Assembly (NCBI GenBank): GCA_048939015.1
Contig: JBHLPW010000022.1
Location: forward strand, 1 to 64,000
Reading direction: 5' to 3'
Source of the DNA: Promethearchaeota archaeon
GTDB lineage: Archaea > Asgardarchaeota > Lokiarchaeia > Sigyniarchaeales > SOKP01
DNA length: 64,000 bases
The translations under genes were made by a program, and so were the position numbers. The notes under the pieces are model-generated. The model was not told the DNA's origin. It did no database searches and saw only the letters and a program-made list of their open reading frames with translations. Below are positions 4,392 to 63,723 of this stretch, one piece after another. Numbering within the stretch: position 1 is the stretch's first letter; every line of letters starts with the position of its first letter.

Positions 4392-4832
4392 CTAGTTTTT
4401 AAGTTTAACTATGTTGTAAATCAAGGCGGCTATAAACGCAAAGAAGAAGAAAGACACAATCCATCCCCATGTATAATCGAGTCTGAGGGCTCCAAATAGG
4501 AATGAAAAGCAAGCTGCCCACTCGACGATGATATATGGAACATGTTGGCTTGGTTTTGAACGAAAATCAATCTTGAAAACCTGGTCAAGCAAAAATTCTA
4601 ACACTAGATAAATGAGGATTAAACTTAGAGAGATTAAAAGTCTCACATTTCTTCCCACAATAACATAATTAATCAACACTAAGATAAGAGGAAAAATCAA
4701 GACAAAAAGGATAATTCCAAATACTTTTACTTTATCTTCCTTGTCATTGGCTGTTAATATAAATACACAAATTATTGATGAGAAAAAAACTAAGCTCGAA
4801 ATTATAAAAATCCAATCAAATAGATCCGTTAG
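4392..4832 (-). CDS. small multi-pass membrane protein; frame extends 44 codons upstream of the track's TTG start
   Basis: Hydrophobic frame LTDLFDWIFIISSLVFFSSIICVFILT...FGIILFVLIFPL is open back to an in-frame TAA, with no ATG/GTG/TTG before 4700; AAAGGTG lies just upstream of CTA(4832)/ACG(4829). Confidence 0.65.
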   Translation of the reverse strand, partial: LTDLFDWIFIISSLVFFSSIICVFILTANDKEDKVKVFGIILFVLIFPLILVLINYVIVGRNVRLLISLSLILIYLVLEFLLDQVFKIDFRSKPSQHVPYIIVEWAACFSFLFGALRLDYTWGWIVSFFFFAFIAALIYNIVKLKN

Positions 4833-4920
4833 GCTCTCGCACCTTTCATTTTAATTGGGTAAAATTAATATCTATTAAAAAAGGTTTTGTATTACACTAA
4901 AGTAGAAAAAAAAATAATGC

Positions 4921-5000
4921 AGCTTATCCTTCATTTCCATATAGAAATCCAGTGATTCTGGGTTGCGAAGAGCTCCACGGTTCGCAACTTACATACCATG
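4921..5000 (-). pseudogene. relic copy of the 3' end of the acetoacetate-CoA ligase gene
   Basis: 67/80 nt identical to 5978-6057; translates HGM*VANRGALRNPESLDFYMEMKDKL versus HGMKVANRGALRNPESLDFYIEMKDKL. Confidence 0.9.
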
Positions 5001-5088
5001 AAGTCTCTTTAGCTAATAAGTTTTAATAATTTTAAAATTCTTTAAAGGATTTAAAGGAAAACCGCTTTTATCTGTGAGTTAAATGGCT

Positions 5089-5868
5089 TTACTTTTTATG
5101 CCCAATAATAAATCTTCCGTGCTTTAACACTTTTTTTGTATTTAATGGAAAGGGTAATTTCGTATATTCTGATAAGAGTTTTGATTCTTCAATTATTCCT
5201 CCATTTTCTTCGACTTTCATTTTTGCAAGCTTAGTATCGGGATAAAATTTTTTATTATCAAATAAATCAAATAAGATAAATTTCCCATTATTCTTTAATA
5301 TACGAATAATTTCCGTCACACATTTAGTCTTATCCTTAGTGTCTTTAACTTCATGGAATGTAAGACAACTCATTGCTGCATTAAATTCGGAATCGTTAAA
5401 TTCTAAATTAGAGGCAGTTCCTTTCTTAAATACTATATTTTTAACTCCTTCCAATTCTGCGTTCTTCATGCATTGTTTTTTACTGTATTCCCAATCAGAA
5501 CCCCAATAATCTACACCTACAAAATCACTCATTTTATTTTGTTTTGCAGCCTTTATTATTAAATTTCCGTTTCCACATCCAACATCAATGATTTTTTTCT
5601 CCCCTTTTAGTCTCTCAATGAATTTTTCATGGATAAAATTCTGATAATTACCCCCTTTTTCTGAAAATTGATAATTTGTTAATGTAATGATAACAGCAAT
5701 ATAACCGAATATAAATGTTGGTATAAACAACACTATAAAATATATCGAATAAACCGCGAGAATAGATAAAATTAAACAAATTAATGTTAGAATCCAAAAG
5801 GTTATTATCTTCTTTTTTCTTATCCAGGTGTTATATCTTGGTCTTGCTTTTATTTGAGTATTGCCCAT
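5089..5868 (-). CDS. class I SAM-dependent methyltransferase with N-terminal TM helices
   Basis: IIDVGCGNG motif I, VGVDYW, CLTFHEV, ILKxxGKF; hydrophobic N-terminus. Confidence 0.88.
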   Translation of the reverse strand: MGNTQIKARPRYNTWIRKKKIITFWILTLICLILSILAVYSIYFIVLFIPTFIFGYIAVIITLTNYQFSEKGGNYQNFIHEKFIERLKGEKKIIDVGCGNGNLIIKAAKQNKMSDFVGVDYWGSDWEYSKKQCMKNAELEGVKNIVFKKGTASNLEFNDSEFNAAMSCLTFHEVKDTKDKTKCVTEIIRILKNNGKFILFDLFDNKKFYPDTKLAKMKVEENGGIIEESKLLSEYTKLPFPLNTKKVLKHGRFIIGHKK

Positions 5869-5967
5869 TTTTACTTTCCTATTTCTTGTAAAGAAATCCT
5901 GACAATAACGATTTCATATTATATTTTCTATGTGATACATTAAATAGCTTTTAAATTAATGAATATG

Positions 5968-61006: not shown

Positions 61007-61087
61007 ACATATCTAAATCTAAATAACTTTTTAAAGTGTTAGATCTTATTTACTAAATTATTTATTTGGATTAATATAATTTTATCT

Positions 61088-61579
61088 ATGGTTCGTCCTT
61101 GGTATTGGCCTAAAAACGGAATGCCCGAAAAAACTACACCCTTTACTTGGATTGTTAAGAATAAAATCGCTGCTTCTTGGTGGCCAGATGCTTCTTTAAT
61201 TGAAAGATATAAAAAAGAAGGAATCAAAGCCATTATAAATTGTTCTGAATTTGATAATCGAAAAGATATCCCTGATCACTTCAAATATTATCATATCAAT
61301 ATACCTGATTTTGGTACTCCAACTGATTCTCAATTAAAAAAATTCCTGGAAATTACTAGTAGTCTTGGAGAGAATAGAATCCCCATAGTTGTACATTGTG
61401 TTGCTGGGTGTGGAAGAACAGGTATAATGTTAGTAATTTGGGCTGCTGTTAATGGTTATATTCCAAATGGATTGGATCCTGTAAAATGGATTCGAAAACT
61501 TAGGCCATGTTCCTTAGAAACGAAGGAACAAAAGGAATTGGCACGGAAAATGGCTAAAAAGTATCAAAAACTTGATTAA
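61088..61579 (+). CDS. dual-specificity/protein-tyrosine phosphatase family protein
   Basis: IPDF acid loop, VHCVAGCGRTG P-loop, RP.SLET.EQ. Confidence 0.92.
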   Translation: MVRPWYWPKNGMPEKTTPFTWIVKNKIAASWWPDASLIERYKKEGIKAIINCSEFDNRKDIPDHFKYYHINIPDFGTPTDSQLKKFLEITSSLGENRIPIVVHCVAGCGRTGIMLVIWAAVNGYIPNGLDPVKWIRKLRPCSLETKEQKELARKMAKKYQKLD

Positions 61580-61656
61580 TGTAAAATATATAAGAATGGA
61601 ATATATTTTATTATTAAGATCATAATTTTTTAAATGCGATAATAGTCAAATTTCAG

Positions 61657-62832
61657 ATGCTTATGCAAAAAGCTGACTACATTTATATGATAACTGATAA
61701 TATATTGGTATATCAAATTAATTTACCTTCTGATTTTAGTGGAAATAAATTACGAGAGCATTTAAATAAATTTGATGAACAATTTCTTGAAATAATTGCG
61801 GGATTTGATAAAAACTTCTTAGAGCATTTCCTAATAATATCAAAAGGAAAGAACCAAGAAGATATCTCTGAAATACTTAAAAAAATGGAGAAAATTTCCC
61901 GTATGATTGGTCCTACTGGAAATCTAAATTATCTTACCCCTAATCAAATCCAATATATTCTTACAAAACTAGGCTCACTAAACCTAAATGAAATCAAAGA
62001 AGCAAAGATTAGTCAATTAGGAGATGAACAAATTCAAAAAGAGTTTGGAACTGGAACTGCATACAGTGCATCTTCAGCATTAGAACAACAACTTGCTAGT
62101 GCAGCATTTTACTTACAATCTATAGGATATAATATTCAAGAGATACAGGATAAATTTAACGAAGTAAGACAAGATCCATCTAAATTGGATGCTTTATTTA
62201 CACTACAGCCTAGAGATATAATTAGCGTCCCTGATGAAATCCAAACAAGAGATACACCGCCCACAAGAACTCAACCGAGTCCAACTCCTCAATCTACTAC
62301 TATTGAGAGAAGTCAACAAACTCAAGATGCCATTGAACAACACGTAAGTTCAATAGAACACGATGTTTCAGGAGAAAGAGCAAAGAAAGTCGAAGAAATA
62401 CTAAATCTTATAAAAGCACATGTAAGAGATAATATGAATGAGAATTATGAAAGAGTCTTTAAACAGATCCACCCTGATAGATTGAATAAAGCTTATAAAA
62501 TGCTAAAAGATACAAAAAGAAAATCCAAAAGAATGTCTCTTTATTTAGAATGGTTCTTTTGCTCTTATCTTTTATCCAATATTGAAGTGAAGGTTGAACA
62601 CTGGCAAACTAGCAGCGCAGCGAGCCATGGTCAAACAGGAGTATATACAGCAGGAATAAGTTTTTCTCGATATGATAATATTATAAGAGATTTCCCAGAT
62701 CATAAGTTAGCAAAGGTTATTAATATTGCAAGACGTATCCTGCAAAGTCCTACAAAACAAGCAATTCAAAAGCTCGCAACAGATTTAGTTGCAGAAACTG
62801 GATTCGATGAGCACCTTTATTTTACAGATTAA
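61657..62832 (+). CDS. hypothetical two-domain protein with Pro/Thr/Gln-rich linker
   Basis: 391-aa ORF; linker RDTPPTRTQPSPTPQSTT; no recognised motif. Confidence 0.75.
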   Translation: MLMQKADYIYMITDNILVYQINLPSDFSGNKLREHLNKFDEQFLEIIAGFDKNFLEHFLIISKGKNQEDISEILKKMEKISRMIGPTGNLNYLTPNQIQYILTKLGSLNLNEIKEAKISQLGDEQIQKEFGTGTAYSASSALEQQLASAAFYLQSIGYNIQEIQDKFNEVRQDPSKLDALFTLQPRDIISVPDEIQTRDTPPTRTQPSPTPQSTTIERSQQTQDAIEQHVSSIEHDVSGERAKKVEEILNLIKAHVRDNMNENYERVFKQIHPDRLNKAYKMLKDTKRKSKRMSLYLEWFFCSYLLSNIEVKVEHWQTSSAASHGQTGVYTAGISFSRYDNIIRDFPDHKLAKVINIARRILQSPTKQAIQKLATDLVAETGFDEHLYFTD

Positions 62833-62916
62833 AACTTTTAGATAATAAATAAAATACTTTTTATTATTAGCAAACTGATTTGAAAGATAATAGATATTCA
62901 CGGGAGATGAGGATAA

Positions 62917-63723
62917 ATTCCTATTTTCAGATATGATGATATTGAATTATTTTATAAAAGGGAAGGTGAAGGACCACCACTTGTATTAATCAGTGGATTA
63001 GGTAGTAAGATGAGTTGGATTTTCCAAATTCCTTTTTTCAAAGAAAAAATGATGGTTATAGCATTACATAATCGTGGAGTTGGAAAGAGTTCCCGCCCAA
63101 ATTATCCCTATACTATGGATATGTATTTAAGAGATATTAAAGAATTACTGGAACACCTAAATATAAAAGAGAAAATTCACCTCTGTGGATTGAGTATGGG
63201 AGGAATGATCGCTCAAAATTATGCTCTAACTTATCCTAATACTGTTAAAACACTGATATTATGTGCTACAACCTCTTATAATCCCGAAACTTCTGTGAAA
63301 GGTGTTATTGAATCCCAACAACTTCTAGAAAAATTTGATTTAGACCAAAAATTTAAGGTAAGAGTTGCAGCTCTCTATTCAAGACCTTTCCAAAGAAGGT
63401 TAAGATCTGATAAAGATCTCTACAATAAAATTAGAAATAACTTTATGGAAGATCCTACTACTTTACAAGATTGGATAAATCAAGGTGCTGGTGTTAAAAA
63501 CCATGATACAAGAGATTATTTACATAATATCCAACAGCCAACATTAATTTTAGTTGGTGATGAAGATAAAATAATTGTAGGATTAGAACATTCTAAATTA
63601 TTACACGATAAAATACCTAATTCAAAACTCAAAATCTTTAATAAAGTAGGGCATAGGTTTGTAGATGAGATTCCAGAAGAAGTAAACACTATTATTTGGG
63701 AATTTATACAAGAAAATTCCTAA
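62917..63723 (+). CDS. alpha/beta hydrolase (3-oxoadipate enol-lactonase-like), probable ATT start
   Basis: TAA at 62914-62916 is followed by ATT-CCT-ATT: (M)PIFRYDDIELFYKREGEGPPLVLISGLG, missing from the track ORF (63010); NRGVGKS, GLSMGG, GH. Confidence 0.85.
   Translation: MPIFRYDDIELFYKREGEGPPLVLISGLGSKMSWIFQIPFFKEKMMVIALHNRGVGKSSRPNYPYTMDMYLRDIKELLEHLNIKEKIHLCGLSMGGMIAQNYALTYPNTVKTLILCATTSYNPETSVKGVIESQQLLEKFDLDQKFKVRVAALYSRPFQRRLRSDKDLYNKIRNNFMEDPTTLQDWINQGAGVKNHDTRDYLHNIQQPTLILVGDEDKIIVGLEHSKLLHDKIPNSKLKIFNKVGHRFVDEIPEEVNTIIWEFIQENS

Follow-up and report, generated by a model that had tools for sequence, protein, structure and literature searches.

Background

In Escherichia coli, the genes infC, which codes for initiation factor IF3, and pcnB start with AUU, and IF3 is autoregulated through its AUU codon (PMC4705826, citing Butler et al. 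1987). Autoregulation of eukaryotic eIF1 operates through a poor start context (PMC4705826). In the archaeon Sulfolobus solfataricus, aIF1 makes 30S complexes reject AUU (PMC4705826), and ribosome profiling in Haloferax volcanii assigned about 30% of putative alternative initiation sites to near-cognate codons, which were set aside as possible false positives (PMC7261190). For the tubulin AtubA from an Asgard archaeon (Kariarchaeaceae), a "rare ATT start codon" was deemed likely in a methods remark (PMC13394414). Here we analyze a 64,000-nt stretch of DNA (hereafter the window) from a Lokiarchaeal metagenome-assembled genome (MAG) of the order Sigyniarchaeales (assembly GCA_048939015.1, contig JBHLPW010000022.1), in which an initial annotation had proposed relaxed initiation at ATA, ATT and CTA codons positioned by a Shine-Dalgarno (SD) sequence. 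Comparisons with related genomes make it very likely that AUA, AUU and AUC are genuine starts in this genome when placed about 6-7 nt behind an SD of the GGAGGTGA type, and the proposal is supported both by four genes in the window and by a genome-wide enrichment.

The window is contig C100 of the source genome, designated G000, a 4.86-Mb MAG consisting of 125 contigs with 30% G+C. We use ATH for ATA, ATT and ATC (AUH in mRNA), and NTG for ATG, GTG and TTG. The SD was derived empirically from canonical starts, and the start lies at an aligned spacing of 4-7 nt, measured from the A of GGTGA. An exact SD of at least 5 nt precedes about 11% of the first canonical codons in G000, and TTG, which had been described as a very common start, makes up 20% of first-NTG codons. 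The protein product of each gene in question was used to search 40 genomes of the same genus, and the codon aligned to the disputed position (the start column) was read in each relative. The motifs, spacings and upstream stops initially listed for six sites in the window were all re-read and are as described.

ATA and ATT starts in the window

Four genes in the window most likely start at ATH codons, judging from alignment with their relatives: ATA 10064 (+), ATT 62917 (+), ATT 48836 (-) and ATA 36066 (-). In each of them, the disputed codon aligns with Met1 of orthologs, and in the first three, there is no in-frame ATG, GTG or TTG from the upstream stop to the family N-terminus.

The ketopantoate reductase-like (ApbA/PanE) gene at 10064..10990 (+) is preceded by the SD GGTGA (10053..10057, +) and a spacer, TAAAAT, with a TAA at 10058-10060, and the resulting distance of 6 nt between GGTGA and ATA is equal to the genome-wide optimum for ATH. 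The stop-to-stop frame comprises 309 codons, with the first NTG located 77 codons in, and position 1 of the Pfam ApbA profile matches residue 4 of the open frame; a protein starting at the first ATG (10292) would lack the GxGxxG motif. The start column is occupied by ATA in G000, by ATT in the G005 ortholog (81% identity), which keeps the same TAA and GGTGA, and by ATG in paralogs from G017 and G024. The ratio of nonsynonymous to synonymous substitution rates (dN/dS) in the N-terminal extension is 0.15.

The alpha/beta hydrolase gene at 62917..63723 (+) has the SD-like sequence GGAGATGA at 62903..62910 (+), separated from ATT by the 6-nt spacer GGATAA, so that TAA immediately precedes the start; in its orthologs, the corresponding element is GAGGT, GGTGA or GGAGATGA, 6-7 nt from the start. 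The first NTG is found 31 codons into a stop-to-stop frame of 268 codons. Position 1 of the Abhydrolase_1 profile matches residue 20, and the first ATG (63010) comes after it; with a canonical start, the first strand of the hydrolase would be lost. The column contains ATT in four genomes (G000, G032, G015 and G038), ATA in one (G001), and ATG in four (G002, G034, G007 and G043), and in the 96% identical ortholog MFW9900420.1 the public annotation begins at this conserved column.

On the minus strand, a gene for a 110-aa protein from an unnamed multi-copy family (48504..48836) begins with ATT, and the SD AGGTG (48843..48847, -) is found as (A/G)GGTG 5-6 nt upstream of the column in 12/12 orthologs. 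In the window, GGTGT (48846-48842) is followed by the 5-nt spacer CCTAA and by ATT 48836, again with TAA immediately before the start. The stop-to-stop frame has 110 codons, the first in-frame NTG is 59 codons in, and the extension shows dN/dS of 0.04-0.15. The column is occupied by ATT in a total of 5 genomes, by ATA in 6, and by TTG in 1. Two tandem paralogs of 107 and 110 aa, one starting with ATG and the other with ATT, occupy positions 48158-48836 (minus strand). The family has no Pfam match; it yields 7 matches in G000 and is present in 40/41 genomes searched, G000 included.

The fourth gene, coding for a 91-aa protein (35791..36066, -), overlaps the upstream gene by 14 nt, and its SD, GAGGAGG (36073..36079, -), lies within the 3′ end of that gene, 6 nt before ATA; homologs have GAGGT or GGAGGT at 7 nt. 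No NTG is present upstream of ATA, and TTG 36048 is located 6 codons downstream, where homologs have an ordinary internal leucine codon (TTA, CTA or CTT). The column has ATA in G000, ATG in 4 homologs, and ATA or ATT in 4 others. In the initial annotation, this start had been listed among the weaker cases.

In all four genes, as well as in the membrane protein gene described below, ATG, TTG or GTG can be found in the disputed column among relatives. In many ortholog copies, in-frame stops are located 1-3 codons upstream; the SD has been retained as well. Between the ATH codon and the first NTG, dN/dS amounts to 0.04-0.18, similar to the rest of each gene. For these four genes, such low values exclude sequencing errors, pseudogenes and untranslated leaders. 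Alignment of homologous N-termini, codon conservation and dN/dS of the extensions had been suggested as checks; start codons alternate in the column, and the frames, initially described as intact, are under purifying selection and have no breaks.

Genome-wide association of near-cognate codons with the SD

The genome-wide set consists of 3,976 non-overlapping frames of at least 100 codons in G000. The first statistic covers in-frame codons at least 8 codons before the first NTG that are preceded by an exact SD of at least 5 nt at an aligned spacing of 4-7; AT-rich control codons and the same triplets out of frame serve as internal controls. The SD-led share is 4.1% for ATT, 4.1% for ATA and 3.7% for ATC, as opposed to 0.5-1.2% for the AT-rich controls AAA, AAT, TTT, TTA and TAT. 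The excess of SDs before ATT and ATA is far beyond chance, and it is frame-specific, since within the same regions only 0.9% of these triplets are SD-led in the two remaining frames, as compared with 4.1% in frame. For exact SDs of at least 5 nt at a spacing of 4-8, the counts are 126/3,719 for ATH and 95/10,108 for controls (odds ratio 3.7, p=2e-21), and the ATH excess peaks at a spacing of 6-7. When all sense codons were ranked with no prior choice, the top four were ATT (p=3e-14), ATA (6e-11), ATC (8e-5) and CTG (1e-3). In the case of CTG, 6/117 occurrences before the first canonical codon are SD-led (odds ratio 5.7, p=0.001), and CUG probably acts in the same way as AUH; ACG possibly does so too, as exemplified by the membrane protein gene below.

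The 126 ATH sites belong to 110 frames; at the median, 2 codons separate them from the stop upstream and 20 codons from the first canonical codon downstream. Among the frames with at least 30 codons ahead of the canonical start, 48/162 carry an SD-led ATH site. The excess over background amounts to about 70-115, varying with SD length and filters. On average, ATH sites have longer SDs and tighter spacing than canonical starts, as one would predict if the SD made up for the weakness of the codon, and the share of ATH among SD-led starts is about 13% with an SD of at least 5 nt and about 19% with at least 6 nt. A per-ORF (open reading frame) tally of the best SD-led candidate codon was dropped, as it was uncorrected for the high background of isoleucine codons.

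In a blind test, 10 candidates were drawn at random from the 108 outside the window, and the corresponding positions were read in five other genomes. Seven of the ten were supported, either because ATH was retained, following a conserved SD and with stops a short distance upstream, or because it alternated with ATG or TTG, the latter pattern being seen in one ATA candidate. Among the ten was an AOR-like gene with ATT in 5/5 orthologs and GAGGTG conserved 7 nt upstream; its ATT presumably corresponds to the Met1 position of the AOR family N-terminus, and an in-frame ATG occurs 4 codons downstream. The remaining three were false: one shows protein conservation extending further upstream, another has an ortholog with a stop in the extension, and the third has a doubtful frame.

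The 7/10 rate, which matches the expected background, sets a floor of about 75-90 genes, or about 2% of frames of at least 100 codons. The scan is blind to sites with an NTG no more than 3 codons downstream or with an in-frame NTG upstream, and correcting for these blind spots might raise the share to 3-5%. The figure of roughly 1 gene in 10 given in the initial annotation holds for the window (about 55 genes, 4-6 of them with such starts) and overstates the rate in the genome as a whole, where the floor is at about 2%.

The association is also detectable, though weaker, in two complete genomes from another family. In G071 (6.04 Mb), the 1.2 Mb tested yielded an odds ratio of 2.8 (p=6.5e-4), with p=0.024 for the first 800 kb alone, and the 0.8 Mb tested in G026 yielded an odds ratio of 2.4 (p=0.019). 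The near-cognate habit therefore seems to extend across the order, to be stronger in the source family, and not to depend strictly on the ATT at the start of aIF1 described in the following section. Should G071 or G026 match a culturable strain, existing methods would suffice for testing.

The aIF1 gene lacks a canonical start ahead of its zinc knuckle

The single-copy gene for aIF1 (SUI1) in G000 is located at C27:8575-8895 (locus L071, 1420-1743), with the candidate start ATT at C27:8581, and no ATG, GTG or TTG is present ahead of the sequence coding for its zinc knuckle, CPIC...CIC. This ATT comes after TGA-TAA stops, and a AAGGTTGTGA element is found 9 nt upstream. An N-terminal zinc knuckle has been documented for Methanocaldococcus jannaschii aIF1 (PMC6237735), and when the G000 protein is read from ATT, its residue 5 aligns to residue 3 of the M. 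jannaschii structure 4MO0. G000 and 28/29 other genomes of the family examined, which represent several genera, have ATT or ATC in the start column; the exceptional genome has ACA in the column and ATA as the next codon. In other families of the order, the column contains ATG or TTG and, once, ATA. The public aIF1 protein, 84 aa long, starts at TTG and is devoid of the zinc knuckle.

Directly upstream of aIF1, an in-frame TTG-TGA-TAA start-stop (C27:8569-8574; L071 1411-1419) is embedded in the SD-like GGTTGTGATAA and kept by most members of the family; it may be a start-stop element with a regulatory role or simply part of the SD. A short GTG upstream ORF ending in the TAA that overlaps ATT-AAA at the aIF1 start was also considered and rejected, as variants with ATC lack that stop.

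By analogy with bacterial infC, an AUU-started aIF1 suggests negative feedback on start-codon stringency. It is further conceivable, if rather doubtful at present, that the family runs a tunable stringency circuit, in which aIF1 made from AUU would set its own level, and about a hundred AUH genes, such as those for the AOR-like oxidoreductase and the PanE-like reductase, would follow aIF1 activity.

The initiator tRNA is canonical

ARAGORN and Rfam searches of G000 returned only about 20 tRNAs and no convincing initiator; the "tRNA-Met" reported by ARAGORN at C27:7155 is a poor call. BLAST with an intron-less copy from a relative located the initiator tRNA gene at C27:31248-31393 (-). It contains two introns, one at the canonical 37/38 site and the other in the T arm, and relatives carry zero, one or two introns at these places; the introns account for its being missed by tRNA finders. 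The spliced product is identical to the relative's intron-less copy and has the features of a canonical archaeal initiator, namely A1-U72, three G-C pairs in the anticodon stem, and the anticodon CAU. Many of the detectable G000 tRNAs have long or non-canonical introns, and the ARAGORN output for G000 also includes one candidate tRNA-SeC and one candidate tRNA-Pyl(cta).

With such an initiator, the tRNA gives no hint of altered decoding. The initial annotation had implicated altered start-codon fidelity, with aIF1, aIF2 and the initiator tRNA as candidates; the tRNA does not bear this out, whereas an aIF1 gene without a canonical start ahead of its zinc knuckle does point to fidelity control. 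An alteration of the initiation machinery is therefore narrowed, the initiator tRNA being canonical and aIF1 being AUU-initiated.

The simplest mechanism compatible with these data would begin with the SD-anti-SD duplex, which would fix the 30S subunit so that an AUH triplet occupies the P site. Ordinary Met-tRNAi (CAU) could then pair with the first two bases of AUH, with the third-position mismatch being tolerated, and the complex would escape rejection often enough for AUH to act as the sole start. We infer that Met-tRNAi is used at AUH codons, and that their efficiency is below that of AUG.

Alternative explanations

The use of all three isoleucine codons, with no other codon family being as enriched, could be taken to mean that an SD-positioned ribosome initiates at ATH with elongator Ile-tRNA, yielding an N-terminal isoleucine. 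We regard this as very improbable, as CTG, which does not code for isoleucine, is also enriched, the column alternates with ATG, TTG and GTG, and the initiator tRNA has its canonical form. In bacteria as well as in eukaryotes, initiation at near-cognate codons relies on the initiator tRNA.

Even less probable is translation from the first downstream ATG, GTG or TTG, in which case the upstream stretch would be an untranslated leader that is open by accident. Prodigal-type callers choose exactly those starts, giving proteins of 232, 237, 51 and 85 aa, and a canonical codon is indeed found 4-6 codons downstream in the 91-aa protein gene and in the AOR-like gene. On the other hand, besides their low dN/dS, the upstream stretches hold the Rossmann GxGxxG motif, the beginning of the hydrolase profile and the aIF1 zinc knuckle, and they align residue for residue with orthologs having ATG in the column; moreover, the downstream NTGs are not preceded by an SD.

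The lowest credence is shared by two further explanations. Consensus or assembly errors, or recent start-loss pseudogenes, might have converted ATG into ATA, ATT or ACG in the MAG, and the membrane protein gene, with ACG versus ATG in a 92% ortholog and one synonymous difference in the extension, is the one case that would fit. ATH is nevertheless found at the same column in independent assemblies (11/12 for the 110-aa protein, 5/9 for the hydrolase, and 29/30 for aIF1), in intact frames that are under purifying selection, and errors would not produce a genome-wide excess tied to SD spacing and to frame. As for a canonical start in another frame (GTG in GGTGA, or ATG in GGAGATGA) followed by a programmed +1 shift or an indel, out-of-frame GTG or ATG triplets do occur one base off the gene frame, 10 nt upstream in the reductase and hydrolase genes and 20 nt upstream in the membrane protein gene, but they belong to the SD motif and run into stops within 1-9 codons, the start-plus-shift sites are not conserved (orthologs vary in SD and spacer, and some have no out-of-frame NTG), and there is no recurring slippery motif.

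Several observations weigh against initiation at near-cognate codons, in individual genes or in general. In the 91-aa protein gene, which has the canonical TTG 36048 shortly after ATA, and in the AOR-like gene, with its ATG 4 codons in, dual or downstream initiation may take place. The combination of SD and ATH does not by itself define a start, given that three of the ten blind-test candidates were false, and ACG displays no significant SD association genome-wide. The anti-SD was inferred from enriched motifs, the 16S 3′ end being absent from the assembly. Finally, since ATH comprises the three isoleucine codons, conservation of the column alone would fit a conserved isoleucine. The case for ATH starts is accordingly built on the adjacent upstream stops, SD spacing, and alternation with ATG and TTG.

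Two window genes with less certain starts

The membrane protein gene at 4392..4829 (-) has no in-frame NTG between the upstream stop and the conserved N-terminus. It is preceded by the SD AGGTG (4840..4844, -), and the same element precedes ATG in the 92% identical ortholog from G052; with reference to GGTGC (4843-4839), CTA 4832 is 6 nt away and ACG 4829 is 9 nt away. In the initial annotation, either codon had been considered as the start. The column contains ATG in 7 orthologs, GTG in 1, and CTG in 1 (G038), and in G000 it is filled by ACG 4829, while CTA 4832 lies upstream of the column and can be set aside. The extension is conserved, with dN far below dS in comparisons with orthologs, and the closest ortholog (92%) has ATG where G000 has ACG, its extension differing by a single synonymous change. 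Initiation at ACG 4829 is probable, the other possibility being that the gene has lost its start only very recently.

A conserved, Lys/Glu-rich ORF of 63-66 aa (8057..8257, +) has two candidate starts in the ortholog columns. ATA 8066, the start originally proposed, does follow GGTGA (8056-8060) at 5 nt, but this GGTGA contains a conserved in-frame GTG (8057), immediately preceded by a TAG stop. Codon 2 is variable (ATA, ATG, TTG, CTG or CCG), and the ATA at codon 4 is invariant in close orthologs and in G048 and G035. The start is therefore ambiguous between GTG 8057 and ATA 8066. The ORF was found in 11 of the 40 same-genus genomes, and its closest copies are 74-86% identical. It fills a 320-nt gap between two minus-strand genes, and the upstream sequence AAAATAAGAATAATTAG is highly conserved.

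Consequences for annotation

Systematic under-annotation by standard gene callers had been anticipated, and the Prodigal-type calls are indeed truncated; the effect is uneven, though, as the NCBI contig record already uses ATA or ATT for two of the genes. It starts the reductase from ATA 10070 (306 aa) and the hydrolase from ATT 62941 (260 aa), both of which differ from the conserved columns at 10064 and 62917, and it shortens the 110-aa protein to 51 aa.

Two canonical starts in the window had been cited as showing the same spacing. That of katG, GGAGTGA followed after 5 nt by ATG, was confirmed at ATG 3016; the mechanically called katG ORF (window 3014-3025, minus strand) begins with GTG 3025, a triplet belonging to the SD GGAGTGA itself, and not with the true start, ATG 3016. 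The other, described as GAGGTGA plus 5 nt before TTG in an "aor" gene (window 5968-7956, minus strand), needs correction in two respects: the start region reads GAGGCGTAAAAATA-TTG, with GAGGCGTAA in place of GAGGTGA, and in relatives that are 90% identical the gene carries the annotation acetoacetate-CoA ligase. At another locus, G000:C87:71727, there is a genuine AOR-like gene whose start is ATT.

N-termini are likely to be wrong in public databases for a few percent of Lokiarchaeal proteins, including cofactor-binding motifs and the aIF1 zinc knuckle, and such errors would be carried over into predicted structures, into trees of eukaryotic signature proteins and into constructs designed for expression. 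The same start correction has already been needed for one Asgard tubulin in the literature.

Comparison with known systems

How stringently start codons are selected is a defining difference between initiation in prokaryotes and in eukaryotes, and frequent conserved AUH starts, together with an AUU-initiated aIF1, in archaeal kin of eukaryotes would offer a concrete system for studying the evolution of eIF1/aIF1 fidelity control. If the stringency circuit is real, it would be an archaeal counterpart of the IF3/infC and eIF1 loops in the prokaryotic lineage closest to eukaryotes. We found no systematic report of such starts in the open-access literature, where the nearest match is a single-gene remark. 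The lineage-wide variant is new; the phenomenon itself is known.

The closest precedent in Asgard archaea is AtubA, in which, as in our genes, the deposited protein is too short, and an upstream ATT at a plausible ribosome-binding site distance restores the conserved N-terminus. That remark (PMC13394414) concerns one gene, makes no genome- or lineage-wide claim, and draws no link to aIF1. Haloferax volcanii provides near-cognate initiation sites in another archaeon; its mRNAs, however, are mostly leaderless, and conserved use of such codons as the sole start was not shown (PMC7261190), unlike the SD-led, conserved starts described here.

The codons that top our unbiased ranking (ATT, ATC, ATA and CTG) are identical to the set of alternative starts in NCBI translation table 11. 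In table 11 use, they are normally rare exceptions, whereas here they would serve about 2% of genes or more. The resemblance to E. coli infC includes both the SD-led AUU start and the presence of a weak codon in the gene for the very factor that polices start codons, in our case the ATT of aIF1. The differences are that aIF1, with its SUI1/eIF1 fold, shares no relationship with IF3, that its autoregulation is proposed by analogy, and that roughly a hundred genes appear to be involved, as compared with two or three in E. coli. In eukaryotes, a homologous factor, eIF1, sets the stringency, and its own mRNA has a weak start site, as is the case here. Eukaryotic initiation nevertheless depends on scanning and Kozak context, while the start here appears to be positioned by the SD, and eukaryotic near-cognate codons mostly start upstream ORFs or isoforms, whereas in this Lokiarchaeal genome they would be the sole start of ordinary enzymes.

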